DNA of 64,000 bases from a virus, in IMG/VR virus record IMGVR_UViG_3300033146_003076, positions 14,864 to 78,863 of that record; one strand, written 5' to 3'. A program made the translations under genes and the position numbers. Below are positions 843 to 59,067 of the stretch, piece by piece. The notes below the pieces were generated by a model, which searched no databases, was not told the origin of the DNA, and saw only the letters and a list, made by a program, of their open reading frames with translations. Each line of letters begins with the position of its first letter. Position 1 is the stretch's first letter.

Positions 843-1211
843 ATGAAAAAAGACATTTTGTTTTTTGTAATTTTAATTTCTCTACTTTTTTTCTTTTTTT
901 ATTCAACTTTTTCCAATATTTCTTATCTTGAGAAGGAGGTTAGGCATGAAGTTGATTCTGTTAAAAAGTTTTATTTTTATAATCATACTGATGATGGCCT
1001 TTTCCGTAATAAATCTGAATTAATTAAGTTTGGGGGGGATTGTGAAACTTGGGCTTTGTATTATAATTCTATATTTAGTGAGAAATATTATACTTCTTTG
1101 TTAGTGTTTCCTTTTGATGAATATAAGAATCATGCTGTTTTATCTGTTTCTGATGGTTCTGAATATTGTATAATTAATCAGGTGTATTATGATTGTTATC
1201 AGATTGAATGA
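843..1211 (+). CDS. Membrane-anchored/secreted transglutaminase-like (papain-fold) protein
   Basis: N-terminal hydrophobic helix; GDCETWA...NHAV motif. Confidence 0.55.
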   Translation: MKKDILFFVILISLLFFFFYSTFSNISYLEKEVRHEVDSVKKFYFYNHTDDGLFRNKSELIKFGGDCETWALYYNSIFSEKYYTSLLVFPFDEYKNHAVLSVSDGSEYCIINQVYYDCYQIE

Positions 1212-1213
1212 AT

Positions 1214-1232
1214 AGGAAGTTTTATAAATAAA
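1214..1232 (+). promoter_or_regulatory. Archaeal BRE-TATA promoter for tail operon
   Basis: GGAAGTTTTATAAATA in intergenic gap upstream of 1356. Confidence 0.5.
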
Positions 1233-1355
1233 TTTAATCATAATATACTATATAGATATAGTAATATAATCTATGTTAATCACATTTAATTGTGATTTAT
1301 TATTATAAGAGATGATTGTTGTTGTCTCTTTTATACCGTTGTTGCGGAGCTTAGA

Positions 1356-1838
1356 ATGACAAATAAAACTATTACTTCAAAAATACATGTTTTAGGTCTA
1401 AATCCTTCTTCTCTTTACAGCGACATTTACAAAATATTTTATAATGTTTTAAAACGTAATGTTTGTGTTGGCACCAAGCGTGTTTGGTTCAGTGCATTTC
1501 CTGATATTGATATTGATAATAAAGATGATTATCCTTTTTTCATTATTGATTCCCCTTCCTTAGAAGATAGTAAATTCACACAAATCCGTGAAAAAATAAA
1601 TACTAGTATTGATATTGAGGTTAGTACAACAAGTTCTCGAACAAGAGATGAATATGCTTCAGATATTTTATATCAATTAAAATTAAATAAACATTATTTA
1701 CGAAAACTTGGTATTACAAAATTAAAATTAGTTGGTGATGATTCCAGTATGATTATGCGTGATGAAATTAAGATTCATACAAAATCATTAAGTTACACTT
1801 TTGAATTTGTTCAAACCAAGGTGTCACCATCATGGTAA
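1356..1838 (+). CDS. Tail terminator/completion protein
   Basis: FP...YPFFIID pattern, 160 aa, synteny. Confidence 0.55.
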   Translation: MTNKTITSKIHVLGLNPSSLYSDIYKIFYNVLKRNVCVGTKRVWFSAFPDIDIDNKDDYPFFIIDSPSLEDSKFTQIREKINTSIDIEVSTTSSRTRDEYASDILYQLKLNKHYLRKLGITKLKLVGDDSSMIMRDEIKIHTKSLSYTFEFVQTKVSPSW

Positions 1839-2332
1839 CTTTACCCCCTGTTGGTTTAACAATAAAAACTAGCGTTAAAAAAATAAAAGGTAAACGTATT
1901 TTATTACCTTCAACTTGGAGAAAGTTTAGTGAAGAATTGATGGATGATTATTCCAAAAAAACTTTACGTGCTATCAGGAAATACGCACCAAAGGGCCAGA
2001 CTGGTTATTTCAAAAGTAATATTAAAATTGATAAAGGTGGAAAATTAATTAAAACTATAAGTTTTGGTGGAGTTCCATGGGTTGAGGCTTTAGAAAAAGG
2101 TTGGAAAGGTCATTGGATTCCACGTTATTGGGTGGACCAATATACTAAATTTCCTGGAAATGCTCGTTTCAAACAATTAAGTAAAGCCGAAATTGCTAAT
2201 ACTGGCGGTTGGTTTTATTCAAATTCAGTAAATTATAAACATAAAGGTTTTATCAAAAAGGGTTTTCTTGCTGGTCAAAAGAACTTCCAAGGAACTGTTG
2301 ATAAATCTTTTAACAAAACAATAAAACGGTGA
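1832..2332 (+). CDS. HK97 gp10-like neck/tail completion protein
   Basis: Basic; APKGQTGYFKSNI...VEALEKG motif typical of the gp10 family. Confidence 0.65.
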   Translation: MVTLPPVGLTIKTSVKKIKGKRILLPSTWRKFSEELMDDYSKKTLRAIRKYAPKGQTGYFKSNIKIDKGGKLIKTISFGGVPWVEALEKGWKGHWIPRYWVDQYTKFPGNARFKQLSKAEIANTGGWFYSNSVNYKHKGFIKKGFLAGQKNFQGTVDKSFNKTIKR

Positions 2333-2589
2333 TTATAATGACAAAGTATAAGATAACAAATGTTTCACGTTTAACAACACGAATTAAGTATGGTGATAAT
2401 GATTTTGAGTTTATAAAAAATAAAGAAGTTATAGAGACAGATAAAAAACCACTAAATAAAACATGTGGTATAACGATTGAAATCGTTCCTGAACAGATTA
2501 TGAAAGAAGAGAAGAAAATTAAAGTTTCTTTTAAAGAGACTGTAAAAAAAGAATTAAAAAAAGAAAATAATAATCAGGAGGATGATTAA
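2329..2589 (+). CDS. Hypothetical tail-module protein
   Basis: ORF coupled to neighbours. Confidence 0.5.
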   Translation: MIIMTKYKITNVSRLTTRIKYGDNDFEFIKNKEVIETDKKPLNKTCGITIEIVPEQIMKEEKKIKVSFKETVKKELKKENNNQEDD

Positions 2590-2591
2590 AT

Positions 2592-3251
2592 ATGGGAGTA
2601 AGTGATTTAACAGTAGAACAATGGACTGAGATCGCATTTGTAGAAATTGCAGATAATGCGGAAACCCCTAATGTGGTTCAGTTTGGTACAATAACAGATA
2701 CATTAGATATTTCAATTGGTACACGAGATGTAGAGGCTATAGCTTTATTAAGTTCTGGTAGAGTTGCAAAGTTTACACCGGAAGATGTAACAGAAATAAC
2801 ATTAGAATTATATCCAATTGGTGTAACATCAATAGGATCTTCACCAAATGGTATTTTAGCTTGGTATTGGGGACAAAATCCTGGAACTAATGCTGGAAGG
2901 AATGAATTTGGTAGAAAATATTTTAGGGTTAGTATGTTATGGACTAATACAATTACAGATTTGACCTCAGTTCCTTTGGTAAGTGCTGGGCAGGAGACTA
3001 TTGGTGATTATTTGAGAATGTCATTTTGGATGAGTTATATGACTGATGCTAAGATGGATTTCACAGATGATATTTTAAAACAAACTGTAACATTTAAATG
3101 TTTACCATTTGACCGTGCTGGTGCTTCAAGAATAGTTTTCGAAGAATACTATGTTGATGGTTCAACAGTAGAGTATATGCCTGTTATGCCCGCCTTTATC
3201 AGTGGAGTTGCACCAACAGATCCAACTACTTGGGCGAACCCAACTCCTTAA
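2592..3251 (+). CDS. Major tail tube protein
   Basis: Acidic beta-rich 219 aa, strong SD, followed by T-rich terminator, upstream of chaperones and TMP. Confidence 0.7.
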   Translation: MGVSDLTVEQWTEIAFVEIADNAETPNVVQFGTITDTLDISIGTRDVEAIALLSSGRVAKFTPEDVTEITLELYPIGVTSIGSSPNGILAWYWGQNPGTNAGRNEFGRKYFRVSMLWTNTITDLTSVPLVSAGQETIGDYLRMSFWMSYMTDAKMDFTDDILKQTVTFKCLPFDRAGASRIVFEEYYVDGSTVEYMPVMPAFISGVAPTDPTTWANPTP

Positions 3252-3254
3252 ACA

Positions 3255-3282
3255 TTTATTTTTTTATTTTTTATTTTTATTT
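3255..3282 (+). terminator. Oligo-T terminator
   Basis: TTTATTTTTTTATTTTTTATTTTTATTT after tail tube stop. Confidence 0.5.
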
Positions 3283-3299
3283 CAAAGTGAGGTTGTATT

Positions 3300-3638
3300 A
3301 TGGAAGAAGAATTTCAAGATATAAAGAAGAGAATATTTAAACATAAAAACTCAGAGGAACTATTTCTAAAACGTGTTCCTGTAGGTACTGTTAAATTGTT
3401 TAAAGCTTATGCGAACGATGAGTTTGCTGGTGATTATGGATTATGCCTTAAAAGTATGACTGATGAATTATTAGTTAAACCTCCTATTTATATGAATTTA
3501 CAAGAACAATTATTTAAATTATTTGAAGAACTTGAAGAATTAAAAAAGAAGATTGAAGGTATTGACTCTCCTGAAACTGAGTCAAATAATATTGTTGAAC
3601 GTGTTAATGGCGTTAGAATGATAAAAAGAAAAGATTGA
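3300..3638 (+). CDS. Hypothetical protein (coiled coil), tail module
   Basis: ORF with GAGGT SD. Confidence 0.55.
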   Translation: MEEEFQDIKKRIFKHKNSEELFLKRVPVGTVKLFKAYANDEFAGDYGLCLKSMTDELLVKPPIYMNLQEQLFKLFEELEELKKKIEGIDSPETESNNIVERVNGVRMIKRKD

Positions 3639-3649
3639 GGATTAAAAAA

Positions 3650-4036
3650 ATGGGAATAGATATTGAAAAATTTAAAAGACACTGTAATATGGGTGTTGAT
3701 GTTATTTTAGAAAATGATGATGGTGCGAAGGATACTTTTAAATTAAAACCTTTAAATCCAAAACAGTTAGTACAATTTAATATTTTGGCTGAAGGTTATG
3801 AAGCTGGAACTTTATCTGATAAAGATACAGAGTCTATGTTTGATTTATTTACAGATGTTGTATTAAATTCATTTCCAGAATTAGACAAATCACTTGCCGA
3901 AAATTTCGCATTAAATAATTTAATTAATTTTATGAGTATTATGGACAAATTGGCTCCTAAAGTTGATAAAAAGAAAATGGATCAATTAAAAAAAATGAAA
4001 GCATTACAACAATCTAAAGTTGCTTCCAATGAATGA
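3650..4036 (+). CDS. Tail assembly chaperone
   Basis: FKLKPL motif, helical acidic protein between tube and TMP; ATG at 3650 follows GAGG. Confidence 0.6.
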   Translation: MGIDIEKFKRHCNMGVDVILENDDGAKDTFKLKPLNPKQLVQFNILAEGYEAGTLSDKDTESMFDLFTDVVLNSFPELDKSLAENFALNNLINFMSIMDKLAPKVDKKKMDQLKKMKALQQSKVASNE

Positions 4037-4271
4037 ATTAACTAAAAAGTCAATTATGGGTCGTGTTTTAGGTGGAAATAACAATTCCCCTAAAGATGTT
4101 GCTGACCAATTTATCCAAATCCACCATATTTTTATGAAAGAGTATGGTTGGATACACCCTGATGTATTTTATTCATTACCTATTGATTTCATTAATAATA
4201 TGGTAAAAGAAATAAATAATAGTCGAAAAGAAGAAAATAAGAAAAATAAAAAAAAAGGTAGAAAAAGGTAA
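4029..4271 (+). CDS. Second tail assembly chaperone-like protein
   Basis: MKEYGW...FYSLP pattern directly before TMP. Confidence 0.5.
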   Translation: MNELTKKSIMGRVLGGNNNSPKDVADQFIQIHHIFMKEYGWIHPDVFYSLPIDFINNMVKEINNSRKEENKKNKKKGRKR

Positions 4272-5978
4272 ATGGCAGGAATTAAAGCAAAAGCAGATCT
4301 TGAAATAACTCTTAAAGTTAAAAATGAACTTTTAAATAAACAGTTAGATCTAACTAAAAAGAAATTAGAACAATTAATTAAAACTAATGACAAATTAGGT
4401 CGTACTCGTCCCAGAACCCAAACTGGCAAAGACGCAAAAAAAACATCCCAAGATAAAAACGAAGAAAAGATATTGGCTGAAAAACGAAAAATTGCTAATA
4501 TGGAAGTACAAAATGCAAGTTATATAGAAAGTAAAAAAAAGAAAAGAGCTCAAGCAGAACAGCAAAGAGTTCTTAAACCTGAAACCAACAAAAAAGATGC
4601 AAAACAACAAGAAAATAATTTTCAATCTATGCGTAATGAATTAATGTTAAGTGGGATTTCTGAAAAGAAAGCTATTTCTGCAACAAATACTCTTAAAAAA
4701 AATATGAGTGATTTGGGTTTCACTATGAAAAAAAATGGGGATTTTTTTAATGAGTCTACTAACCAAACAATTGGTTTTAATAAAGCTGCTGGTTATCTTT
4801 CTCGTAGTGTAATGCCAAAATTCCATGGGCAATTCTTATCTTTAATGTTTATTGGTCAAGGAATGTCTGCTACTTTTGGAGGTATGATTCAAAGTGCCTT
4901 ACAATCAACAGGTATTTTTGAAGCATTTGGAGGTGTATTACAAAGTATTTTATTACCTGTTTTGATGCCATTAATTATGAGATGGTTGCCAAAATTAATG
5001 AAGTGGTTAGAATCACCTGGTGCTAAAGAGTTTGCTGCACAAGTTATTATTATGGGTTCTGCTTTAGGTACCACATTGTCTATGATTTCACAAGTTGTAT
5101 TATTATTGGGTTCTTTAGGATTTAGTTTAAAAGATATAGGATTATGGTTTAAGAATGGCCCCTCAGTTATTTCTAGTTTTTTTAAAGGATTAAAAAATAG
5201 TTGGATTCTTATTAAGACTGCTTTTAAAAGTAAAGGTTTATTAGCTGGTTTAAAATTAGGATTTAAATCTGTTGGTCAAAGTATTGCAAAATGGTTGCCT
5301 TTAATAAATGGTGTTGTTGGTGGTTTAACTATTTTTTGGGGTATTTTAACTGACAATATTTGGCCTGTTTTAAAAGGGATAATTTTGGTTATTGGTGCTA
5401 TTTTAACTGTTATTTTTGGTTGGCCTGCCGCTCTTGCCGCTGCGATTGTGGGTGTTGTTTTGATGTTTGATAAATTTGCTTTATTGAGAGGAATAATTTA
5501 TTCTATTACAGCCGCCAGTGTAAGTTGGTTATCTGCATTAGAATTAATTGGTCAGGCAGTTGGTAAAATATTTAAAGGAGATTGGAAAGGATTAAAAGAG
5601 GTTTTTAGTATGGACAATATGTTAAATAATACTTTGTCCGGAAAATTAGTTAAATCTGCCGCTTATCAGTTTCAAGCTGTTCAAAAAGAAGGTATTGGTG
5701 CTAAATCTACTGAAATAGATTTACAAGGGAATCTTAAAAATATACCTAAAATGGCTAGTGGTGGAATTGTTAATGACCCTACTTTAGCCGTTATTGGAGA
5801 AGCCGGCCCAGAAGCAGTTATTCCTTTAAGTTCTAATAATAGTAATTTTGCTGGAAATAAAGAAATATATTATAATCCTACTATTAATGTTAATGTTAGT
5901 GGTGGTTCTTTTAATGAGCAGGATTTAGCCGATAAAATAAATAAAGCATTATATGATGCGTTACAAAGAGGTATTTAA
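4272..5978 (+). CDS. Tape measure protein
   Basis: Helical, hydrophobic central region, C-terminal IPKMASGGIV...IGEAGPEAVIPL motif. Confidence 0.85.
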   Translation: MAGIKAKADLEITLKVKNELLNKQLDLTKKKLEQLIKTNDKLGRTRPRTQTGKDAKKTSQDKNEEKILAEKRKIANMEVQNASYIESKKKKRAQAEQQRVLKPETNKKDAKQQENNFQSMRNELMLSGISEKKAISATNTLKKNMSDLGFTMKKNGDFFNESTNQTIGFNKAAGYLSRSVMPKFHGQFLSLMFIGQGMSATFGGMIQSALQSTGIFEAFGGVLQSILLPVLMPLIMRWLPKLMKWLESPGAKEFAAQVIIMGSALGTTLSMISQVVLLLGSLGFSLKDIGLWFKNGPSVISSFFKGLKNSWILIKTAFKSKGLLAGLKLGFKSVGQSIAKWLPLINGVVGGLTIFWGILTDNIWPVLKGIILVIGAILTVIFGWPAALAAAIVGVVLMFDKFALLRGIIYSITAASVSWLSALELIGQAVGKIFKGDWKGLKEVFSMDNMLNNTLSGKLVKSAAYQFQAVQKEGIGAKSTEIDLQGNLKNIPKMASGGIVNDPTLAVIGEAGPEAVIPLSSNNSNFAGNKEIYYNPTINVNVSGGSFNEQDLADKINKALYDALQRGI

Positions 5979-10393: not shown

Positions 10394-12478
10394 ATGGCTT
10401 TTTCAACAAGTGAAAAATTTGCAGCATCAAAAATTGCTTATGCTTCCTCTTCTTCCGTAAATAATTGGGCTGTTTATACTTCAGGCAATTATTATGCTAA
10501 ACTCGTTGGTGCCGCAGCAAGAGCTAGTTCAGGATATTTAAGAATATATGGTTTTGGTTTTTCAACTTCTGATTTTACATCAAGAAGTATTGATTTTATT
10601 TCTTATTCTTCAAGAATAGTAGGGGTAACATTTACACTTAATTGTAAGACTTATTCTGGTAATATTGTTTATGATGAAGAAGTATACTTAAAAACAGATT
10701 CAGGGACTGGCCATTCAGGTAATAATAAAGCAAGTGGTAGTTCTTGGGGTACTAGTTATTATGATAAAAATTATGGGTCTAGTAGTGATACATGGGGACA
10801 TTCTCTTGATATAGGTGATGTTACTGGATTAAATTTTGGAGTTTTATTAAAAATACAACTTGGACCTGTTGGTGCTGGAGATAATCATAGAGGGAATGTT
10901 CGTATGACTACTGAGGGTAGTGATGAAAAAACACGTTCTACAGTTTATTATAAAAAACCCGCATATTACCCTGATATTAGTATAAGGTCTGCTACTAATA
11001 TAGATTATGAATCCGCTACTATAAGAGGTGATATTGATATTTTACAAGATTATGATGAAGTAGATACCCAATTTTGTTATAGAGAATATAATTTTGGTAG
11101 TGCAGATTTTAGTCCTTCCCAAACAATTGCAGATGGAGTTCAAACATATAATGTTTCTGGTAATAGTTATGAGATAACTCTTAAAGAAATTAATGTTTCT
11201 TTGGGTGCAAGATTTATGGTTAATGGCCAAGTTACTTGTCATTTAGATGAAGATGAAGGAAGCAGATTAGATGTTGGAAGTGGTAATGCATTTATTGAGG
11301 TTACAAATATTTCTGGAAATACAGTTAGTTTTAAATTATGGGATAATGTTGGGGCTTGGACTACAACTAGTTCAATTACTAGAGATTCAACAGGAACATA
11401 TTCTGAAAATATTTCTTCTTTGGATAGTGAAACAGATTATATTTATTATTTTAAACAAATTACTTCTGACTCAGGGGTTGATAGTGATTATTATTCTTTG
11501 GAAACAGAGCATAATAGTCGTGTTACAACATTTACAACATCTGCCCCACCTAGTTCAGGAGTACATTATAATGTTGGTGGTCTTTGGAAAGATATTGGAG
11601 AAGTACATTATAAAATAGGTTCTACTTGGGAAAAGATTGATGAAGTTTATTATAATCTTTTTTCTTGGTCTGTAGGAGGTAATTTATCTGTTGCAAAACA
11701 TGCTTTAGGTGGGGCTGGAACTCAGTCTGCTGGTTTATCTTTTGGAGGTTTTACTGGTTCTTATTCTAATGCCACGGAGGAATATAATGGTACTTCTTGG
11801 TCTGGAGGGGGCAATTTAACTAGTGCCCGGTATATGTTAGGTGGATGTGGTACTCAAACAGCTGGTTTAAGTTTTGGGGGATATAATCCAAGTTATTCTT
11901 CTGTTACTGAAGAGTATGATGGTTCTAGTTGGAGTGGTGGTGGTAATTTGAATACTGCTCGTTATGGTTTAGCCGGTTGTGGCACTCAATCTTCTGGTTT
12001 ATCTTTTGGTGGAACTACTGGTAGTAGAAGTAATATTACTGAGGAGTATGATGGTTCTAGTTGGAGTAGTGGTGGTAATTTGTCTACTGCCAGATTTGGT
12101 TTAGCTGGGTGTGGGACCCAATCTTCTGCCTTATCTTTTGGTGGAACTAATGGTGCTTCTTCTTATAATATTACCGAAGAGTATGATAGTGGTTCTTGGA
12201 GTAGTGGGGGAACTTTAAATACTGCTAGATTTGGTTTAGCTGGTTGTGGTACTCAAAGTTCTGGTTTAAGTTTTGGAGGAACTTCTGGTGGTCCTTCTAA
12301 TGTTACCGAAGAATATGATGGTGGTTCATGGAGTATTTGTTCTAATTTAAATACCGCTAGATATGATCTGGGTGGTGTTGGATTAAGTGCGAGTGGGTTA
12401 TCTTTTGGTGGTCATGAGGGAAGTGGATATTCACAAGCTACCGAAGAATATAATCTTTCTTGGAAATTATTAGAATAA
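10394..12478 (+). CDS. Adhesin/tail protein with FN3-like domain and C-terminal Kelch-like beta-propeller
   Basis: Six ~44-aa repeats WSxGGNLxTARxGLAGCGTQSSGLSFGG...TEEYDGSS. Confidence 0.75.
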   Translation: MAFSTSEKFAASKIAYASSSSVNNWAVYTSGNYYAKLVGAAARASSGYLRIYGFGFSTSDFTSRSIDFISYSSRIVGVTFTLNCKTYSGNIVYDEEVYLKTDSGTGHSGNNKASGSSWGTSYYDKNYGSSSDTWGHSLDIGDVTGLNFGVLLKIQLGPVGAGDNHRGNVRMTTEGSDEKTRSTVYYKKPAYYPDISIRSATNIDYESATIRGDIDILQDYDEVDTQFCYREYNFGSADFSPSQTIADGVQTYNVSGNSYEITLKEINVSLGARFMVNGQVTCHLDEDEGSRLDVGSGNAFIEVTNISGNTVSFKLWDNVGAWTTTSSITRDSTGTYSENISSLDSETDYIYYFKQITSDSGVDSDYYSLETEHNSRVTTFTTSAPPSSGVHYNVGGLWKDIGEVHYKIGSTWEKIDEVYYNLFSWSVGGNLSVAKHALGGAGTQSAGLSFGGFTGSYSNATEEYNGTSWSGGGNLTSARYMLGGCGTQTAGLSFGGYNPSYSSVTEEYDGSSWSGGGNLNTARYGLAGCGTQSSGLSFGGTTGSRSNITEEYDGSSWSSGGNLSTARFGLAGCGTQSSALSFGGTNGASSYNITEEYDSGSWSSGGTLNTARFGLAGCGTQSSGLSFGGTSGGPSNVTEEYDGGSWSICSNLNTARYDLGGVGLSASGLSFGGHEGSGYSQATEEYNLSWKLLE
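11660..12460 (+). repeat. Six ~132-bp coding tandem repeats (Kelch-like blades)
   Basis: Visible at DNA and protein level. Confidence 0.85.
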
Positions 12479-14861: not shown

Positions 14862-15156
14862 AGTATACTTTTTGATTTCCTCTTATTCTTTTCTTCACAC
14901 TTCCTTCTTCAATAAGTTTTGCTAATAGATCCATAACATAAATCACATTTTTTGTTTGTATTAAATTCATTATTTGTGTTAATCCTAAATCACTTGAATC
15001 GTATAATACTTTTTTTATTGCTAATTCTCTGTTATGAACCCAAATTGTGTGATAATAATTTCCTCTTTTCTGAAGTGCGGGTTCATTTTTATGTTTATTA
15101 ATATATCTTTTCATATAATAATAATAAGCAATCTTAGTTATGAATACTCCAGACAT
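14794..15156 (-). CDS. Winged-helix protein
   Basis: LAKLIEEGSVKKRIRGNQKVYYV. Confidence 0.6.
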   Translation of the reverse strand: MSGVFITKIAYYYYMKRYINKHKNEPALQKRGNYYHTIWVHNRELAIKKVLYDSSDLGLTQIMNLIQTKNVIYVMDLLAKLIEEGSVKKRIRGNQKVYYVDKPTFTYEKRKSRYNLRTIA

Positions 15157-27638: not shown

Positions 27639-27983
27639 TTATTTACCATAAACACTATTTTTTTCAACCAAATGTATTATTGAAACAGTTCCATGTGTTA
27701 TACCTTTCCTTTTAAATTCCGTAGTTAATAAACCTTCCTCTTTTATCCACTTAATATCTCTATCAAATGTTTTTCTACAATGTGAATATCCTTTTGTTCT
27801 TAATCTTCTGTATAACCTTTCTTTTGAAATACCTTCTTCTACATGTTTCATAATTAGGTTTCTTCTCAGATCTAAACTATGTGTTGACGCTGGTTGTACT
27901 TCTACTAAAATATTTTGTTTCTTTAATATTGGCATTATCTTTTTAAGTTCATCTGTTGAACATATTATTTTTATTTCTACCAT
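27639..27983 (-). CDS. Winged-helix protein
   Basis: RKTFDRDIKWIKEEGLL. Confidence 0.6.
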   Translation of the reverse strand: MVEIKIICSTDELKKIMPILKKQNILVEVQPASTHSLDLRRNLIMKHVEEGISKERLYRRLRTKGYSHCRKTFDRDIKWIKEEGLLTTEFKRKGITHGTVSIIHLVEKNSVYGK

Positions 27984-28091
27984 TTTTCTTTACCTCTTAT
28001 TTTTTTAATATTTTTATCGGACCAGATACGAAATCTAGAAATAGTACATTTGAGGTGAAATAAATCAAAATCACACCTGGTCTTTCGATAA

Positions 28092-30920
28092 TTATATAGT
28101 TTTGTAAAATCCTGGTCTTGGTCTTATTATATCTCCTCTATGGACTAAAATATTAATTATCCCATCAAAATCTATTTCTTTTTCTCCTGTTAAGTTACTC
28201 CATTTCTCTAATACTTCTTCATGTGGACTTATTCCAATTTCATTTTTACATGAGTCTATACATTCCCTTAATACATACATCTTATCTCTTTTCTTTTTAG
28301 GGACAATTTGTTCTATTGCATTAATATTTAATCTTCCATCGGCAATATCATTAGTCATTATACCTTGTGCTTTAAATGATTCAACAAATATTTCTATTGC
28401 TTCTTCTGCGTCTTGTACTTCTATAATTTTACTTAACCTTGATTTCGCACATGCTGTTGAAACTCTTATTATATTTGTAATTAATCTACTAGAAAAATAT
28501 GCTTGTTCATCACCTGGATTTGCTGGTTTTGTTAATTTTATATATTCATTAGTTATATGTTTTATTGCTTCATTACTCATAACTGGTTTAACATAATTTT
28601 TAACATAAGCTAAATATTTTAATATTTTCTCATTGTTATAATTAACATCAACCTCATCATCTTCATTATACTTATTGAATATTGTTTTGATTATTTTTCT
28701 TTGATGTTCTTCTGTTTCTATTGCATGCATTGGAAATACTAAATCAAACCTATCCATAAAGTCTTTAGGGAACCCAATTTGTTTCCATACTGCTTCATAC
28801 TTATCAAAGACTCTATTAACTGGGTTTGCTGTTGCTAAAACTGTTGTTTCTGTTCTTATTATACTATGAATATTTGCTTTGTCAAATGGTACTTCTAAGT
28901 CCATTAATGCATTATTAAGTTTAGCCATATCATCTTTTTCTAATTTATCACATTCATCAAGAACAACTAAACTTCCTGTTGATAATGCTAACACCCCTGC
29001 TTCTAATACCCAACATCCTAATTCTTCATCTTTTGTTATTGCCGCAACTAATCCAACTCCTGTTGTTGATGATCCACTAGATAATCTACTATTAGGCAGA
29101 TAATGTAATGAACATTTTGCTAATTTTGTTTTACCAGAATTATGCGTGATTACACCATTATCTAAAATAAAATTATGGGTGTCCGGCACAATTAAGTCCC
29201 ACATTTCTTTTTTTTCCTTGCTCTTGTATAATTGTGTAATTTTGCATGGCATGATTGACAAAGAATTGTTAAATTGTCCAGAACATTGTTTTTGTTGTTC
29301 CCATCTATGTGATGAATAACCAAGTCCATTTTTGTATTGTTTTTTCCACAAGTGTGACAAATCCAGTACAAATATTCTTTTGCTATTTTTACATACTTTT
29401 TTCTGTTTTTGCTTAAACCCACGCTTAACCCATTTTTGTAAGCCGGATTTTTTTCTCCTTCTTTTCCTTTGAATTTGTATAAATTTTGAGAAATTCCTAA
29501 ACTTACTTGTTCTTTGAAGGACCTCATAGGTATGCCCATCATTTTTAACCTTCTTATTATTACATGATGATCGTGCCCCACTATTTTTCCTATTTGTGTT
29601 GCAGATAATTGTTTTTCTTGATATAACCTTTTTATTAAGTTTAAATCCAAATTTACCCACATATTGTTTTTTTCTAATGTTTGATCTCGTTGCATATTTT
29701 TCATCATTTTTAACCACCCTTAATAATAAATCTGTTATTTTTAATTCATTTGTTTTTATTTCCATGATGATCTTATTTCTTATTACTATCCATATATGGT
29801 CTTTTGAACATTTTAATTCCTCTTTCTCTGTACAAATAATATATACATCTTTTTGGCCTGTGCATTTCGGGATGCACATACTTTCAACTTTTTCAAATTT
29901 ATCATTAATTGTTAAACAAGTTTTTGCTTCTGATATTTTTTTTAATCCATCTTTTGTTTGGATTAATTGGTCTTTTAACATACATCCTGGATTTCCACAT
30001 ATTAATACATGGATTAAACCTCTTTCTTCTAATTTATTATTGATGTATAAATGTTCTCCACCAATTAGCTGTAAGAATAATGCTTTTTTAATTATATCAT
30101 GTCCATAAATAGTTCCATAAATCTCTTGGATAATATTTTCTCTAAAGTTTGTTTGTGTTGACATTAACTTTATTTCTTCAATATCATCTTCAGATAATTT
30201 TACAGTTCCTATTCCTTCTTCAATCATTTCTATGTTATTTGCTTCAACATATTTAATTTGATCTACACTATTATCTTTTCTTGGTTTTTCTTTTAATATT
30301 CCTGTAACTTTAATTTTTTTACTTGGTTGAACATTTTTATCTATGTTCTCATGACATAATGAACCTTTCAATGATATTAACATTGTTCGTGGTTTTTGTG
30401 CAGGGTCAATCATATTAATATCTTCTTCGATAACTAACTTTTGTAAATCTTCTAAATCTCTTGTTGTTTCTTTGAATCTTGTTTTATTTCCACATTGACA
30501 TATTTGTGGTTTTGTTATTTTTTCAGAGAGTTGTACGAGAGGTATTGTATTTCCACATGAAGGACAATCATAGTGTATTACTTTTGGGAAATGTGTAACT
30601 TCTGTTGTCTTTCTTATATATCCTGTTATAGATACTAATTTTGAAACATCTTTTGCTCTTAGTTTCCAAATATCTTTATGTTCTGACTGTGGTATGTTTG
30701 TAAATCTGATAGAAGTATTTTTCTTTCCGGATATACCTTCGTATGCTATTTCACATACTTTAATTGCTTCTTCAAAATCATCTAAGATATAATCTCCTAG
30801 TTCTGGTGATACTTGGATAATTTTCCCAAAATCCACGTATAAAGAATTATTTATTATTACATTATCACTTTTATTAAAAAAGGTTTTTGCTGAATCGATT
30901 AGTTTTGCTATTTCACTCAT
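28092..30920 (-). CDS. mcm: MCM replicative helicase (about 660 aa after splicing) with intein
   Basis: N-terminal Zn finger/OB, Walker A GNPG|SGKT, LEAGVLAL, LDECDK, ATANP, DRFDL, SSR. Confidence 0.97.
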   Translation of the reverse strand: MSEIAKLIDSAKTFFNKSDNVIINNSLYVDFGKIIQVSPELGDYILDDFEEAIKVCEIAYEGISGKKNTSIRFTNIPQSEHKDIWKLRAKDVSKLVSITGYIRKTTEVTHFPKVIHYDCPSCGNTIPLVQLSEKITKPQICQCGNKTRFKETTRDLEDLQKLVIEEDINMIDPAQKPRTMLISLKGSLCHENIDKNVQPSKKIKVTGILKEKPRKDNSVDQIKYVEANNIEMIEEGIGTVKLSEDDIEEIKLMSTQTNFRENIIQEIYGTIYGHDIIKKALFLQLIGGEHLYINNKLEERGLIHVLICGNPGCMLKDQLIQTKDGLKKISEAKTCLTINDKFEKVESMCIPKCTGQKDVYIICTEKEELKCSKDHIWIVIRNKIIMEIKTNELKITDLLLRVVKNDEKYATRSNIRKKQYVGKFGFKLNKKVISRKTIICNTNRKNSGARSSCNNKKVKNDGHTYEVLQRTSKFRNFSKFIQIQRKRRRKKSGLQKWVKRGFKQKQKKVCKNSKRIFVLDLSHLWKKQYKNGLGYSSHRWEQQKQCSGQFNNSLSIMPCKITQLYKSKEKKEMWDLIVPDTHNFILDNGVITHNSGKTKLAKCSLHYLPNSRLSSGSSTTGVGLVAAITKDEELGCWVLEAGVLALSTGSLVVLDECDKLEKDDMAKLNNALMDLEVPFDKANIHSIIRTETTVLATANPVNRVFDKYEAVWKQIGFPKDFMDRFDLVFPMHAIETEEHQRKIIKTIFNKYNEDDEVDVNYNNEKILKYLAYVKNYVKPVMSNEAIKHITNEYIKLTKPANPGDEQAYFSSRLITNIIRVSTACAKSRLSKIIEVQDAEEAIEIFVESFKAQGIMTNDIADGRLNINAIEQIVPKKKRDKMYVLRECIDSCKNEIGISPHEEVLEKWSNLTGEKEIDFDGIINILVHRGDIIRPRPGFYKTI
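29139..29984 (-). mobile_element. Intein (282 aa) in MCM Walker A
   Basis: Starts CMLKDQ, block B CSKDHIW, block F/G MWDLIVPDTHNFILDNGVITHN followed by Ser. Confidence 0.95.
29192..29707 (-). CDS. HNH homing endonuclease nested out of frame in the intein
   Basis: N-terminal HTH, NUMOD-like NPAYKNG, CHTC...IHHIDGNNKNNVLDNLTILCQSCHAKLH; own SD-like GGGTGG plus ATG. Confidence 0.9.
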   Translation of the reverse strand: MMKNMQRDQTLEKNNMWVNLDLNLIKRLYQEKQLSATQIGKIVGHDHHVIIRRLKMMGIPMRSFKEQVSLGISQNLYKFKGKEGEKNPAYKNGLSVGLSKNRKKYVKIAKEYLYWICHTCGKNNTKMDLVIHHIDGNNKNNVLDNLTILCQSCHAKLHNYTRARKKKKCGT

Positions 30921-31067
30921 CTTTCTTCACCTTTTATCCTTTTTTGTTAATATTAGTAATCTGTTGATAACTTCATCATAACTTTCTCTGTTAGTTATTC
31001 TTCTCTCTTTTAATTCCTCTCTTGTTGTTTTTTCAATTTGTATCGTTGTCATTTTACACCTCTTCTT

Positions 31068-31991
31068 TTATTTTGTTTTTACATTATGATATTTTAATAA
31101 TTTACCCATATTACCATCACACCAAACATTTAATATAGTATTATGAAGTTTAGGGTTTTCAATTTTCATTCTTTGAAATCTGTTTGGTTCTTTTTCTAAG
31201 TGAACTCCAAAACCACAACCAACACATCCTGTACGTTTTGCTTTTGTTGTTTCCCATTTACCTTCAACTTTAATTATTTCTCCATAAGCATCACAATAAT
31301 CTAGATCATATTGTTTAATATATTCTAGTATGTCCTGTTCTGTCCAGAAACCTAAAGGAGTACATTGTCCTTTTTCCCAATCGATACACCCATTTTGAAG
31401 ATATTGTTTTTTTCTTTGTTGTCCGTCACTAGCCATGGTTGCAATAAATCCTTTCATGCCTGATTTTTTATTAAATCTTTTTATTGGTTCTTTCTTTAAA
31501 TAATGGCAGCACATATCACTTACTTCTATATCTGAAGTAATTATATCTTTCCATTTATTAGATATTTTAAACATTGTTTTACTTCCATCCTTCATTATCC
31601 CTGTTATTAACCTACTTCTTAAGTAATCTGACTTTGTATGTTTTGCTTGATAAATAAAATGTGCTTGTTGTTTAGTTGGGAATGGTATACCATATTTATT
31701 CCACACTTCCAACATACTCTTTTTTGGTTTTAAAACAATGTTTGCTTTTTTTAATGCGTGATCTCTTGTGTGTAGTTCAGTTCCTGTATCTACAAATAAT
31801 ACTTTAACATCTGGAAAAAAGGATTTTATTAAATGTAACATAACTTCCGAATCTTTACCCCCACTATAAGAGATATAAACCTCTCCATTATATTCTTGAT
31901 AGAACTTTCTAATCTTAATTAACGAAAGATTAATCTTTACATTTAAAGATAATTTCTGTCTTTGTTCTAATTGCCATTTTTCCATCTTCAT
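31068..31991 (-). CDS. PAPS reductase-family (PP-loop, Fe-S) protein
   Basis: SYSGGKDS, DTGTE, CCHYLKKEP, RTGCVGC. Confidence 0.9.
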   Translation of the reverse strand: MKMEKWQLEQRQKLSLNVKINLSLIKIRKFYQEYNGEVYISYSGGKDSEVMLHLIKSFFPDVKVLFVDTGTELHTRDHALKKANIVLKPKKSMLEVWNKYGIPFPTKQQAHFIYQAKHTKSDYLRSRLITGIMKDGSKTMFKISNKWKDIITSDIEVSDMCCHYLKKEPIKRFNKKSGMKGFIATMASDGQQRKKQYLQNGCIDWEKGQCTPLGFWTEQDILEYIKQYDLDYCDAYGEIIKVEGKWETTKAKRTGCVGCGFGVHLEKEPNRFQRMKIENPKLHNTILNVWCDGNMGKLLKYHNVKTK

Positions 31992-54023: not shown

Positions 54024-55404
54024 TGGTATGAGTGAATGTGAGTTTAGTGATCGTTGTTTTTTAGATTTAGATTTTTTCATGGTTCATGTCTTGGGTTTCC
54101 AGGTTAAAGATTTTCATTCTGCTATGTTAAATTCTCCTTTCCGTAGTAAGCGTATTTTAATTAAAGCTAGTCGTGGTTTTGGTAAGAGTACTGTTATGGC
54201 TTTGGTTTATCCTTTGTGGATGTTAATGTATAAACCTTCTTGTGAGATTATGTTTACTGCTAGTGAGACTCGTCAGGCTGAGCGTTTGTTACGTAATGTT
54301 GTTGACGAGATTGAAGATAACGAATTTTTGTGTGAATTAAAACCTTCAATTCCTGATGTTTGGAGTAGTCGTCAGATTAAAACTTCTAATGGTTGCAAAA
54401 TTTGGTGCCGTAGTTTCACTAAGAGTTTGAAAGGTTATCATGTTGATTATTGTTTTGTTGATGAGGTCCAAGACATTATTGACCGTGTAAATTATTATGA
54501 TGGTGTTTTACATATTGTTGGTAATAAGAATGGTGTTATTGTTGCTGTTGGTACTGATAATGATCCTGCTGATATGTTGAATGAGTTATATAATAAAAGT
54601 GAGTATTACACTTTAAAGATTCCCATCTTAAAAAAGGACGGTGTTCCTATGTGGCCCGAGAAATATCCTATTGAGAAGATCCAGGCAATTCGTCATGATG
54701 CCGGTGAAAGTTCTTTCCAGCGTCAGTGTATGTTAAATCCTAATGCTTCTTTTGAGGAGAGTATTTATTCAACTGAGTGGGTTTCAAATTGTTATGATAA
54801 TACTGTTGGTTTTGTTAGTTGTAAACAGCATGAAGGTAGTAGTGTTTTCATTGGTGCTGATTTCGCTATAAGTAGTGCTAAGTGGGCAGATTTTGATGCT
54901 TATACTGTTGTTGAGAAGTTTGGTGGTTTCATTCGTTTACTTTATGCTGAGCGTCATAAAGGTTTACCTAAAGATGCTAAAAAGGAGCGTTTACGTCAAT
55001 TATATAAACAATATTCTGCTAATAAGATTATTCTTGATCCTGCTAATGTTGGTGAGGGCATTTTACAAGATTTGCGTATGGATGGTTTCATTGTTGAGTC
55101 TGGCGAGTTTCATGCTCGTGCTCGTAATAAGATGTTGGTCAATTTGGTTAATATGGTTCAGCCTGATGAGAAGACTGGCCGTAGTATTTTACAATTACCA
55201 CGGAACCCTGATGACTTGTCTTGTATGACTTATACTAATATTTTAACTAGTGAGTTGATTGGTTTTCGTGAAGTTAAGAGTGCTTCTACTGGTATGACTA
55301 GTATTCAGTCTAGTACTGCTCATGATGATACTGTTATGAGTATGGCTTTGGCTTGTAAGGCTGCTGATGAAAGTCGTGTTTGTGGCGATATGATGGCTAT
55401 GTAA
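53995..55404 (+). CDS. terL: Terminase large subunit
   Basis: KASRGFGKS Walker A, FVDEVQD Walker B, IGADFA and HDDTVMS nuclease motifs. Confidence 0.95.
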   Translation: MRTLKEIIPDGMSECEFSDRCFLDLDFFMVHVLGFQVKDFHSAMLNSPFRSKRILIKASRGFGKSTVMALVYPLWMLMYKPSCEIMFTASETRQAERLLRNVVDEIEDNEFLCELKPSIPDVWSSRQIKTSNGCKIWCRSFTKSLKGYHVDYCFVDEVQDIIDRVNYYDGVLHIVGNKNGVIVAVGTDNDPADMLNELYNKSEYYTLKIPILKKDGVPMWPEKYPIEKIQAIRHDAGESSFQRQCMLNPNASFEESIYSTEWVSNCYDNTVGFVSCKQHEGSSVFIGADFAISSAKWADFDAYTVVEKFGGFIRLLYAERHKGLPKDAKKERLRQLYKQYSANKIILDPANVGEGILQDLRMDGFIVESGEFHARARNKMLVNLVNMVQPDEKTGRSILQLPRNPDDLSCMTYTNILTSELIGFREVKSASTGMTSIQSSTAHDDTVMSMALACKAADESRVCGDMMAM

Positions 55405-55777: not shown

Positions 55778-57067
55778 ATGAAACCTATATTTGATATGTT
55801 ATTGTCTGGTAATGTTGCTAGTTCTTCCTCTAAATTTCTTTCTGGTGCATCTGCTGGTGTTCCTTCTTCAACCCGTGAAACTCCTAAACAGAAGCGTGTT
55901 GGTTTAAGTGAGTTAGAATTATGTTATATGGCTGACCCTGTAATTTTTAATGGTGTTAATAAGATTGTTGATACTATAATGAGTGGCAAGATTTCTATTG
56001 TTGCTAAGGATAGAAAGGTCCAAAAATATTTTGACAATTTTGTTAAAAATTTAGGCACTAGTGGTGCTACTAATAGTTGGCGTGATTTGTTAACTTTAAT
56101 TTTCAAATACCAATGTATTTATGCTCGTGTTCCTGTCGAGAATGTTATGAATAAGCGTAAAAACCGTGTGGTTGATTGGGACATATTTGATCCTAAACAG
56201 ATTGATTATGCCAAGGATGATATACAAAATATTGTTCTTGACGATTTCAATAAACCTGTGGGTTATTTCCAATTATTGAGTTATGGTAATCTTGATTCTT
56301 CGGGCGAGAAAAAAATTGCTGTTAATTCTCTTCAGCCTTTGCCCCCTAAAGTTTCTCGTCCTTCAAGTTACCCTAACTCAATATTCTTTCCAAAAAATAA
56401 AATTTCTTTAATAAAATTTTCCAGTGTTGGTGACGGTTTTTATCCTATTGGTTTAGTTGAACCAATTTATAAGGCTTCTCTTCGTAAGATGAATGTTGAA
56501 GAATCTTTGGCTAGTGCTTTGTATCGTATGGGCAATCCCATTTTATGGGCTAAACTTGGTGATCTTTCTCATGAACCAACTCCCAATTTGATTAAAACTA
56601 TGCTTGATAAGTTAAAGAATTTATCTTCTCGTAATGAGGTTACTACTCCTTATTATTACGATTTAGAATATTTAAAATCTGACATTGATACTGGTGTCCG
56701 TGACAATTTGGATTATTATATAAATCAGGAAGTTGCTGGTTTGGGTATTCCTCATTCTTATGTTACTGGTGGTGCTGAGAATGCAAATTCTGCTTCTTTA
56801 GGTAATCAGTCAACTATGTTTTCTTTAACTATTAAAAATTTGATTAGTGCTACTACTTCTTCAATTGAGAAGGAGATGTTTGCTGTTATTTGTAAGTATG
56901 AAGGTTTCAAAGAGATTCCTAAATTAATTATAGATTTGGATACTGATGATGAGTTAAATGATCGTGCTAAGCGTTTATTTCAATATTGTCAAGCTGGTCT
57001 TATTACTTATAGTAAAGATATTGAGAATGTTATACGAAAGTCCGAGGGTTTACCTTTAAAAAAATGA
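55778..57067 (+). CDS. Portal protein
   Basis: 429 aa after TerL; Y..DPVIFNGV, YPIGLVEP, AGLGIP motifs. Confidence 0.85.
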   Translation: MKPIFDMLLSGNVASSSSKFLSGASAGVPSSTRETPKQKRVGLSELELCYMADPVIFNGVNKIVDTIMSGKISIVAKDRKVQKYFDNFVKNLGTSGATNSWRDLLTLIFKYQCIYARVPVENVMNKRKNRVVDWDIFDPKQIDYAKDDIQNIVLDDFNKPVGYFQLLSYGNLDSSGEKKIAVNSLQPLPPKVSRPSSYPNSIFFPKNKISLIKFSSVGDGFYPIGLVEPIYKASLRKMNVEESLASALYRMGNPILWAKLGDLSHEPTPNLIKTMLDKLKNLSSRNEVTTPYYYDLEYLKSDIDTGVRDNLDYYINQEVAGLGIPHSYVTGGAENANSASLGNQSTMFSLTIKNLISATTSSIEKEMFAVICKYEGFKEIPKLIIDLDTDDELNDRAKRLFQYCQAGLITYSKDIENVIRKSEGLPLKK

Positions 57068-59067
57068 GTATACAAAATTTCCTTGAGGTAAAAGATTGTG
57101 TAATTATCAATTCTTCTTGTTTGAGTCGTGTTTTATCTGGTTCTCGGTCTATGTTAATTAATCCTTTATTAGTTCGTGGTGTTGTTAATCGTTTTGTTTA
57201 CTTGGTATCTGGCACTCTTTGTTATGGTGTTATAACTTTGGTTAATCCTTCTAAATTAAATTTAAAAGAGTTTGATTCTTTGTTTGAGTTTCATAATATT
57301 TCTAAAGAAAACTTATCTAAGTGGTGGCCTTCTAAAGAAGTTTTGTTTGGTTATGATATTAATGTTATAAAATTGTTTGATTCTCCTCGTGAGATTATTC
57401 ATTCTTTGAAAGATAACAAATTATTACAACATTTTGAGTTTAAAGATAATGTTGAAGTTCCTGTTTTAGATTTTTCTGATTCTGATGTTAATGTTTTAAA
57501 ATCCATGCTTGATTCTTTGGAAGATTATTCTTGTACTTCTCCTGGTGTCAGTAAAAAAGAAGTTGACGCTTTGCGTAAGAAGTATAATTTAATGAGTGAT
57601 CGTTCAGATTTAGATTTTGGCGAGATTGATATTGATTATGCAGAATTAAAGTTCACTTATCATGAGTTTGATAATATTTTTGAGGCTGTTGAGCATATGT
57701 TTGTTAATGATAGTTCTTTTATTGTTGAGCAGGACCAGTCTGGTGTTACTTGTACTTTGGTTAAACAAGGCGACCTTTGCAAATTATATTATACTAATAA
57801 GCTTGATATAACTTCTTATTTCCCAGATTTAATGAAACAAGTGCGATTATTGTCTAGTTCAGATTTCGCTTTAGATGTTCGTTTATGTATTCCTGATAAA
57901 TCTAAGAAAGCTATTGATATTATTATCAAATCCCAAAAAAAATTTTCTTCTGACGTATTTTTACATGTTATTGATTGTTTATATTTTGGTTCTGATGTCC
58001 GTAATCTTCCTTATGTAAATCGTAAAAAACATTTGAATAGTTTATCTTATACAAATAATATTATTGAGAGTCCTTATTTTGTTGTTGAAAATCAAGAACA
58101 ATTAAAAGAGAGTTATAATATAATCAATATGTTAAGTGATGAAGTAATTGTTACTAGTAATAATAAGTCTGATGCTTATTTAGTTTCTGAAGATTTATCT
58201 TCAAGTTCTATTAGTAATCATTCATATTTTTCAAAACAATCTGGTCCTATGTTTTATTTCCTTGGTTTTTTAAGTTGTGATGGTCATGTTGATGTTGACA
58301 CTAACCGTGTTGAGATTCATATTGCTAAGGATGATTCTGAGATTATTAAAAATTTCCAAAAAGCTTTAGGTGATAATCGTGATATTACTAATGGTTTTTT
58401 AAAATTCAAATCTAAAGAGTTGGTTAAAGATTTAGCAAAATATGATTTAACTAAATTGAAACCTTTACGTCGAACTTTTAATAAGATTCCTTCTTCTTAT
58501 AAGTGGGATTTTATTCGTGGTTGTTTTGATGCTGATGGTACAATTTTAAAAGAAAAATTACAATTTGATTCTGGGAACCGCCCTATGGTACGTTGGTTAT
58601 ATGACCAGTTTAAGAAAATAGGTGGTGATGATGTTAAATACTATAATTACGACTCTACATCAAAATGTACAGTTTATAAAAATTCGGTTAATGAAATTCA
58701 TTCTAAAATATATTCTGGGGGTCGTCCCTATTTATCGAGGAAAAAAAATTATTTGTCTGGTAAAAATTCGGTAGAACATTCATCTTCTGATGTTGATTCT
58801 GTTAAAGAAACTTCTCCTGAATCTATCCCCTTATCTCCTCGTCGTCGTGTTTTAAGTCCTGGCGTTATGTTTTCTGTTGAGGACATTATTCGTTTTGATA
58901 AAATTGGTGATAATTTCAAGATTTATTTAATTAAATCTTATAATGCTTTTGTTGTTAAGACTACTAATAATTTTGGTAATGGTGTTGATGAAGTTATGGA
59001 ATATTACCGTTTTAATACTATAGAAAAAGCTACAAGTGTGTATGAGGAGATTTACAATGGATTTTAA
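57064..59067 (+). CDS. Fusion: ASCH-like + inactive ATP-dependent ligase-like + LAGLIDADG endonuclease
   Basis: FIVEQDQSG (no motif I Lys), DITSYFPDL, VIDCLYFG...LPY..RK; FLGFLSCDG and FIRGCFDADG. Confidence 0.7.
   Translation: MSIQNFLEVKDCVIINSSCLSRVLSGSRSMLINPLLVRGVVNRFVYLVSGTLCYGVITLVNPSKLNLKEFDSLFEFHNISKENLSKWWPSKEVLFGYDINVIKLFDSPREIIHSLKDNKLLQHFEFKDNVEVPVLDFSDSDVNVLKSMLDSLEDYSCTSPGVSKKEVDALRKKYNLMSDRSDLDFGEIDIDYAELKFTYHEFDNIFEAVEHMFVNDSSFIVEQDQSGVTCTLVKQGDLCKLYYTNKLDITSYFPDLMKQVRLLSSSDFALDVRLCIPDKSKKAIDIIIKSQKKFSSDVFLHVIDCLYFGSDVRNLPYVNRKKHLNSLSYTNNIIESPYFVVENQEQLKESYNIINMLSDEVIVTSNNKSDAYLVSEDLSSSSISNHSYFSKQSGPMFYFLGFLSCDGHVDVDTNRVEIHIAKDDSEIIKNFQKALGDNRDITNGFLKFKSKELVKDLAKYDLTKLKPLRRTFNKIPSSYKWDFIRGCFDADGTILKEKLQFDSGNRPMVRWLYDQFKKIGGDDVKYYNYDSTSKCTVYKNSVNEIHSKIYSGGRPYLSRKKNYLSGKNSVEHSSSDVDSVKETSPESIPLSPRRRVLSPGVMFSVEDIIRFDKIGDNFKIYLIKSYNAFVVKTTNNFGNGVDEVMEYYRFNTIEKATSVYEEIYNGF

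Follow-up and report, generated by a model that had tools for sequence, protein, structure and literature searches.

How does an intein come to enclose a homing endonuclease that is written in another reading frame, and is such an arrangement kept by selection or merely produced by chance? This question is raised by a gene for the MCM replicative helicase in a 64,000-nucleotide (nt) stretch of viral DNA, hereafter the window, which spans positions 14,864 to 78,863 of the IMG/VR record IMGVR_UViG_3300033146_003076. An intein interrupts the MCM protein, and inside the intein-coding DNA a second open reading frame (ORF), in the +1 frame of the same strand, encodes a protein with a helix-turn-helix (HTH) and an HNH endonuclease domain. 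We conclude that the locus probably holds a non-canonical MCM intein together with a separate, out-of-frame HNH homing endonuclease gene, both frames being under selection. The coordinates of all features are given in Table 1.

The MCM frame is uninterrupted over 942 codons, and the ORF matches the Pfam families MCM (E value 9e-48), MCM_OB, MCM_lid and Intein_splicing. Its extein can be aligned with intein-less MCM relatives of 652–675 amino acids (aa). The insertion point lies inside the Walker A motif (GNPG|C...THN|SGKT), at a position that is unbroken in the relatives P0005, P0009 and P0010 (alignment A1), P0005 reading GSPG|TGKT. The intein profile PF14890 scores 48.4 bits on the insert, against a cut-off of 35.8, and covers both of its ends. 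The preliminary description of this DNA had listed a Cys1, a block B His, a terminal His-Asn and a +1 Ser as intact splicing elements, and all of them are present: Cys1, the block B sequence CSKDH with its His, a terminal THN and Ser at +1, with blocks F and G reading "...DLIVPDTHNFILDNGVITHN". The N-terminal splicing subdomain can be aligned with the N-terminal part of 9hth, a polymerase mini-intein of solved structure, and with a related intein in the MCM protein P0006, which is described below, while the C-terminal subdomain, which shares its first four codons with the end of the HNH ORF, matches the C terminus of the solved Pyrococcus horikoshii RadA intein (phmmer E 0.02). Between the two subdomains runs a "filler" loop that is strongly basic (K 20%, R 9%, D+E 4.6%, net charge +42) and in which Pfam finds no endonuclease family in the intein frame; here too the earlier account of a K/R-rich centre devoid of an endonuclease motif was right. 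With these blocks in place, the intein is predicted to splice itself out of the MCM precursor. A group I or group II intron carrying an endonuclease ORF was also considered, but Rfam gives no match at E ≤ 1 over 27900–31100, and the unbroken frame and intein blocks make an intron unnecessary.

Within the MCM ORF, the HNH ORF begins at nt offset 1213, hence in the +1 frame, with the N-terminal splicing blocks of the intein on one side of it and the C-terminal blocks on the other. It thus fills the exact place that the homing endonuclease occupies in canonical inteins, and its TAA falls within the first codons of block F. PF01844 scores 25.1 bits on the encoded protein, above the cut-off of 21.4, which agrees with the preliminary report of a complete HTH and HNH ORF shifted by 1 nt on the same strand. 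An exhaustive phmmer search with the HNH protein returned 4982 cluster representatives at E < 1e-3, 84 of them at E < 1e-10. The best relatives are proteins of 150–320 aa that are matched end to end, led by P0002 (213 aa, 54% identity), and the members of the family are mostly stand-alone proteins. In an alignment of 19 sequences of this family (A2), the window HNH keeps 13/13 invariant and 9/9 nearly invariant columns. An AlphaFold2 (AF2) model made with the family alignment reached a pLDDT (predicted local distance difference test) of 86. The HTH module comprises predicted helices at residues 22–31, 36–43 and 47–56, and the N-terminal half of the model (residues 14–66) resembles the HTH domains of GcrA, Mos1/SETMAR and Tn3 resolvase (VIA Z 5.9, 5.4 and 5.3, respectively). 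The C-terminal half (residues 97–171) resembles the HNH domains of ZRANB3 (Z 6.5), phage GVE2 HNH (6.4), McrA (5.5) and the homing enzyme I-HmuI (4.9). A Foldseek comparison of the model with the PDB gave nothing at E ≤ 0.001. Judged by its alignment with the family, the nested ORF is a full-length and intact member of the HTH-HNH family, and its product would be a nuclease acting as a homing endonuclease.

Could two such frames stay open by chance? Stops occur off frame in the genes of the window at 0.085 per codon in +1 and 0.148 per codon in +2. In the overlap, both the MCM and the HNH frame are open for 171–175 codons, and the third frame of the span contains 23 stops. We resampled the overlap 20,000 times, keeping the HNH protein unchanged and choosing codons according to window usage: 21.4 ± 2.6 stops were expected in the MCM frame (minimum 12) versus 0 observed, a value that 0/20,000 trials reached. 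When only the ORF's own synonymous codons were shuffled, the mean was 10.3 MCM-frame stops and the minimum 3. With the filler protein fixed instead, ~6.6 stops were expected in the HNH frame, and there are 0 inside the ORF. The MCM frame is stop-free because codon choice in the HNH ORF is biased. T occupies the third position in 24% of its codons versus 48% in window genes, and its 40 NNT codons are never followed by AA, AG or GA. Codon-usage odds in the overlap are ~0 in both frames and −1.2 in the third, versus in-frame values of +0.14 to +0.31 and off-frame values of −0.7 to −1.7 in the rest of the gene; in the N-terminal splicing subdomain they are positive in the MCM frame alone. Among 26 related MCM loci that we examined, none of those with a guanine-plus-cytosine (GC) content ≤0.35 contains a same-strand nested ORF of at least 90 codons. 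These findings show that both frames are held open by selection, not chance, which bears out the earlier proposal that selection keeps the intein frame free of stops. The HNH frame appears to be selected for its protein sequence, the intein frame for the absence of stops alone.

Some other long open runs were seen. An antisense ORF of 170 codons (29596–30108, plus strand) lies opposite the N-terminal part of the intein; related low-GC MCM genes often have antisense ORFs of 90–266 codons facing them, and this one is probably a composition effect. The next-longest off-frame open runs of the window in +1 are 118 codons in terL (54872–55225, plus strand) and 115 codons in a 694-aa ORF (11271–11615, plus strand). 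We rejected both as genes, as they encode hydrophobic L/I/V-rich strings without start context and look like chance.

A related MCM protein from an independent assembly in the European Nucleotide Archive (ENA), P0006 (968 aa), offers a comparison, its C-extein being 51% identical to that of the window. Its intein lies elsewhere, in the N-terminal zinc finger (KCQ|C...THN|CGC), but is homologous to the window intein over the full length (BLASTP E 4e-15), with z scores of 16.7 for the N-terminal and 15.6 for the C-terminal part. The in-frame middle is again K/R-rich (26%) and without an endonuclease family match, and the two fillers, read in frame, show no significant similarity to each other (z 1.8). 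P0006, which was not found in IMG/VR or GTDB, was judged from its protein sequence alone. In brief, we converted each pair of neighbouring residues into the set of residues that could be encoded there in the +1 or +2 frame, and matched the sets by alignment to an HNH-family profile from which the window's own row had been left out. The +1 frame of the P0006 middle scored 184.6 versus 83.3 ± 8.0 for shuffles (maximum 114.9), a z of 12.7, whereas the +2 frame gave a z of −0.1. As a positive control, the window's own filler gave a z of 28.7 in +1, and the middle of a LAGLIDADG intein, used as a negative control, gave 1.5. The +1 alignment covers profile columns 6–169, a span with no obligatory +1 stop, and 17/18 conserved columns are encodable, including both CxxC pairs and the HH. 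By this measure, the P0006 intein can also encode the same HNH family in its +1 frame. Since the +1 frame fits the HNH family while the fillers are unlike each other, in these two diverged elements the +1 frame would carry a conserved protein and the intein frame would merely be kept open.

The P0006 intein also seems to be mobile. The exteins of P0006 and a further MCM protein, P0007, are 98.2% identical, and the intein at the zinc-finger site is found in P0006 only; the existence of so similar an allele without it suggests that this intein was recently gained or lost. P0007 has a LAGLIDADG intein at a third site, after "...KASIHA". Two of the 12 extein differences between P0006 and P0007 fall in the 10 residues that follow the insertion point of P0006, and could represent a co-conversion tract.

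Selection on the HNH frame need not mean that the nuclease is still at work. The strongest alternative is that the ORF is a passenger, immobilised recently or never translated at all, and that the intein persists by splicing alone, without homing. Homing endonuclease genes commonly decay after fixation, as discussed by Gosselin, Arsenault and Gogarten (2025; bioRxiv 10.1101/2025.01.02.630785) and by Phillips, DeSimone and Gogarten (2026; bioRxiv 10.64898/2026.09.14.751524), and the intein with its nested HNH gene is present in one copy in the whole record, with no close relatives found. Nevertheless, the ORF is intact, with its ribosome-binding motif and every conserved catalytic and zinc-binding residue kept, although several stops (the ~6.6 given above) would be expected had the filler alone constrained the DNA. 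In addition, the diverged sister intein still fits an HNH protein in +1 and is polymorphic between 98% identical alleles. An idle nuclease is, on balance, unlikely.

How might the HNH protein be translated? A TAA stop precedes its ATG by four codons in the HNH frame, so simple read-through cannot make it an N-terminal fusion. Genes of the window bear GAGG, GGAG, AGGT or GGTG motifs 5–10 nt before their ATG, and the sequence upstream of the HNH ATG (aagGGTGGttaaaaATG), which includes a Shine-Dalgarno-like GGGTGG, nearly repeats that of the gene starting at 53475 (gGGTGGttaaatATG), and MCM itself has a similar one (aaGGTGaagaaagATG); both are examples of window genes with GGTG(G/A) at this distance. 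In the background, GGTGG occurs in 0.8% of 19-nt intervals. Because this GGTGG-type motif resembles those of other genes of the virus and is rare in the background, independent initiation of HNH translation is plausible; the Shine-Dalgarno-like motif, ATG and stop that the preliminary description had assigned to the ORF are all there. That description had gone on to suggest that homing is decoupled from expression of the host gene. This holds at most for translation, as no separate promoter was seen.

The frame junctions on either side of the HNH gene, an A5 and an A8 run, allow for a different route, namely recoding, in which some ribosomes or transcripts would slip at both runs and make HNH an internal domain of an intein that frameshifting renders canonical, instead of, or besides, a free protein. 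The tRNA-Lys on AAA in GTT-AAA-AAT could slip downstream by one base and pair again, with ATG as the next codon, and one more A in the A8 run would connect the HNH frame with block F. But two slips would be needed per molecule, and we found no stimulatory structure or known recoding signal, Rfam being blank for 27900–31100. Moreover, the selected, stop-free MCM frame shows that the straight read-through product matters, and the HNH gene has an ordinary ribosome-binding motif and ATG. We regard recoding as very unlikely.

We also asked where else this HNH family occurs. We screened 160 loci encoding HNH relatives; among those whose +2 frame is open, L089 and L003 gave the two best matches over the full length. 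Each has its HTH-HNH ORF nested in +1 within an N6/N4 DNA-methylase ORF that has no intein, and the nested HNH of L089 matches that of the window with a BLASTP E of 8e-15. The insertion is at the catalytic (V/I)TD|PPY motif (DPPY), and, with another "...VTD" at the end of the insert, the methylase motif is regenerated. Both contigs are higher in GC. The free-standing family members L087 and L088 contain 37 stops in the corresponding frame. These relatives also bear on the possibility that the HNH protein is a domesticated nuclease that serves the virus otherwise, in DNA packaging, degradation of host DNA or competition between viruses. Phage HNH proteins do have several roles, and there is a terminase gene in the same window. 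Against this, the gene is exactly where inteins hold their homing endonuclease, its relatives are nested at conserved motifs of conserved genes (the methylase DPPY), and the presence/absence polymorphism of the sister intein is a pattern typical of homing, all of which leaves domestication with little probability.

Finally, an assembly artefact, in which two compensating single-base homopolymer errors hide a canonical intein whose HNH domain is really in frame, hardly deserves credence: inteins with in-frame HNH are known, and one deletion plus one insertion in the A5 and A8 runs that flank HNH would fuse it in frame with the splicing subdomains, but the compensating indels are ruled out by the stop-free, codon-biased MCM frame, as the MCM frame would then have been the unselected −1 frame of a coding sequence with ~21 stops expected (10 with the ORF's own codons) versus 0, a count unmatched in 20,000 trials, sequencing error cannot produce a stop-avoiding codon bias, the independently assembled P0006 has the same open K/R-rich intein frame and +1 HNH signal, and HNH has its own stop-delimited start and ribosome-binding motif.

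Several observations weigh against an MCM intein with a separate, active HNH homing endonuclease gene. Block B has a Ser where Thr is usual (SKDH versus TxxH), as does P0006, and a single-sequence AlphaFold model of the intein, with a pLDDT of 38, is uninformative. The VIA Z scores of 4.9–6.5 obtained with the C-terminal half of the HNH model are middling, so that the fold evidence is only supportive. Internal initiation within a translated ORF is usually inefficient. The nested HNH of P0006 is deduced by degenerate back-translation of a protein and is hence indirect. Close relatives are lacking as well: the intein region found itself alone among 5.8 billion proteins, HNH and the C-extein had no match in IMG/VR, the intein alignment A3 retrieved from IMG/VR and GTDB genomes only L189, an unrelated fractured gene, and GenBank phages gave one weak, unannotated match. 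The window element is known from one genome.

With these points set against the evidence above, a non-canonical intein with a separate, selected HNH gene is the reading that we hold to be probable, and it would work as follows. Translation of MCM would read straight through, yielding a precursor whose intein consists of the N-terminal subdomain, the disordered basic filler and the C-terminal subdomain; the intein would then splice out together with the filler and restore the GNPG-SGKT P-loop. A minority of ribosomes would initiate within the MCM transcript, at the GGTGG/ATG of the HNH gene, and make a free HTH-HNH protein, which during co-infection would cut intein-less MCM alleles, their repair copying the intein and the gene within it. 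As to origin, a free-standing HNH gene may have invaded a mini-intein, as Dassa et al. (2009) and Gosselin et al. (2025) propose, with only those insertions surviving that could be read through in an open frame. A fractured gene, as seen in L189, would be the alternative outcome of such an invasion.

Table 1. Coordinates of the MCM intein, its nested HNH gene and the two methylase loci with a related nested gene (window positions unless a locus is named)
Feature	Coordinates	Strand	Basis
MCM replicative helicase gene, 942-aa precursor (660-aa extein + 282-aa intein)	28092..30920	minus	ORF + Pfam
N-extein, residues 1-312, ending ...ICGNPG = first half of Walker A P-loop	29985..30920	minus	alignment A1
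Class-1 intein, 282 aa, residues 313-594, Cys1 to terminal His-Asn	29139..29984	minus	PF14890, P0006 homology
N-terminal splicing subdomain: blocks A, B (CSKDH), N4-like (ELKITDLL); single-coding	29720..29984	minus	alignment, codon odds
Intein-frame filler loop, ~172 aa, without family match	29205..29719	minus	Pfam, composition
C-terminal splicing subdomain: blocks F + G, M573-N594	29139..29204	minus	phmmer, P0006
C-extein, residues 595-942, beginning SGKT = second half of Walker A	28092..29138	minus	Pfam + alignment
Nested HTH + HNH endonuclease gene, 171 aa, own ATG + TAA, +1 frame relative to MCM	29192..29707	minus	PF01844
HTH DNA-binding module of HNH protein, ~residues 22-56	29540..29644	minus	predicted helices, VIA
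HNH catalytic core with two CxxC zinc knuckles: C117, C120, H132, H133, N145, C150, C153, H154, H158	29234..29359	minus	alignment A2
TAA stop in HNH frame, 4 codons before ATG	29720..29722	minus	sequence
Shine-Dalgarno-like GGGTGG, 6 nt upstream of HNH ATG	29714..29719	minus	sequence
A5 run, frame junction 5' of HNH gene	29707..29711	minus	sequence
A8 run, frame junction 3' of HNH gene	29208..29215	minus	sequence
L089 methylase; nested HTH-HNH	1990-3177; 2171-2626		Pfam PF01555, E 6e-23
L003 methylase; nested HTH-HNH	897-1895; 1072-1719		

Is this layout new? The preliminary description had overrated its novelty, since an intein with an out-of-frame endonuclease is an already known architecture, to which the window adds a well-supported case. 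According to Gosselin et al. (2025) and Phillips et al. (2026), Gorbalenya (1998) proposed endonuclease genes of inteins in alternative frames or on the opposite strand, and Gosselin et al. themselves describe actinobacteriophage inteins with the endonuclease in another frame or strand, alongside inteins with HNH in frame, in hosts that include terminase, polymerase, capsid and ThyX. The window element shares with these a bona fide splicing domain, a centre without an endonuclease motif, an endonuclease ORF of free-standing type between the blocks, an open intein frame and the origin proposed there, a free-standing endonuclease gene invading an intein. It differs in its enzyme, theirs on the same strand being endonuclease VII-like and in frame 3 and ours HTH-HNH and in +1, and in its setting, an archaeal-type MCM gene of a low-GC tailed virus rather than an actinophage gene. 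In the cyanobacterial dnaX intein described by Phillips et al. (2026), selection is likewise frame-specific and the overlapping endonuclease frame is on the same strand, with purifying selection on the endonuclease, a relaxed intein frame and secondary invasion of a mini-intein as the proposed origin. The enzyme there is, however, a LAGLIDADG protein in the +2 frame of a cellular gene, and the ratio of nonsynonymous to synonymous substitution rates (dN/dS) was measured on many alleles, whereas the comparison made here covers one genome and one indirect sister. The pattern that we see in the window and P0006, a conserved +1 protein in an intein frame that is merely open, matches that reported for dnaX.

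Out-of-frame HNH genes are also known without inteins. Arsenault, Gosselin and Gogarten (2025; PMC11855218) described ShiLan-type "hidden" HNH genes in phage DNA-methylase genes, which resemble the window in that the HNH gene lies out of frame in an open host ORF, the in-frame product being a disordered loop. ShiLan insertions have no splicing domain and their loop stays in the host protein, whereas that of the window is inside an intein. The methylase loci L089 and L003 have the ShiLan-type layout, and their nested HNH belongs to the family of the window HNH. One HNH family thus links out-of-frame intein endonucleases with "hidden" HNH insertions in methylase genes, and its sharing between intein and methylase supports the model in which the splicing domain comes first and the endonuclease invades later.

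Fractured genes, reported by Dassa et al. (2009; PMC2677866), have an intein in two halves that are separated by a free-standing endonuclease gene. They share with the window an endonuclease gene of free-standing type between N- and C-terminal intein parts, but there the host frame is broken and the halves are trans-spliced, whereas the MCM frame of the window is continuous. Locus L189 (IMGVR_UViG_3300033889_000457, 1095–4868) is a fractured gene of this kind. Its host ORF ends in an N-terminal intein half (1095–1811) and is followed by a 383-aa ORF resembling a free-standing endonuclease (1836–2987); the next ORF (2971–3999) opens with a C-terminal intein half and ends with another N-terminal half, after which comes a last ORF (4035–4868).

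The P-loop site itself is also used by archaeal MCM inteins of the LAGLIDADG class (P0008 and L183), which are inserted at the same position of the Pfam MCM profile (68|69, PG|[ST]GK[ST]) and, unlike the window intein, carry their endonuclease in frame. A common lineage with these inteins is not supported (BLASTP E 1.8; z of 2.4 and −0.3 for the N-terminal part). The window intein is far closer to the zinc-finger-site intein of P0006 than to LAGLIDADG inteins at its own site. In the literature searched, we found no published report of this layout in MCM or in an archaeal virus. What is new is the setting in MCM and in a probable DPANN virus, a sister intein that occupies another site in MCM, and the tie, through one HNH family, to hidden HNH genes without inteins. 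The locus would provide a clean and statistically strong case of a homing endonuclease gene overprinted in an intein, with selection differing by frame, and would extend non-canonical inteins to an HNH enzyme, an MCM helicase and a probable DPANN archaeal tailed virus. Since gene callers miss nested genes, homing endonucleases in viral inteins are probably under-counted.

More tentatively, the intein and its +1 HNH gene might form one composite mobile unit, in which an HTH-HNH lineage specialised for out-of-frame life in genes uses the intein as a "safe harbour" that removes the filler by splicing, and which has moved between the P-loop and the zinc finger of MCM in DPANN viruses. We offer this as a possibility that is somewhat easier to doubt than to accept. 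If it were true, the move between two MCM sites would imply re-targeting of the nuclease.

The virus that carries the element is known from a 78.9-kb record with a completeness estimate of 56%. The window codes for a large terminase, a Mu-like portal, a C5 methylase, a PAPS-reductase-like protein and a glycosyltransferase, genes that point to a tailed virus. The closest cellular MCM proteins are 34–37% identical and come from metagenome-assembled genomes (MAGs) of Woesearchaeota and Nanoarchaeia and from MAGs labelled Methanosarcinales. Because Woesearchaeota and Nanoarchaeia are among these nearest relatives, the host probably belongs to the DPANN archaea. A profile scan of the record gave no second match to the intein splicing profile. 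Directly after the portal gene, at 57064–59064 on the plus strand, is a 667-aa ORF with an in-frame LAGLIDADG_3 domain (Pfam E 5e-7, ~residues 398–500); possible readings are a degenerate intein and a head-morphogenesis protein with a LAGLIDADG insertion in frame.

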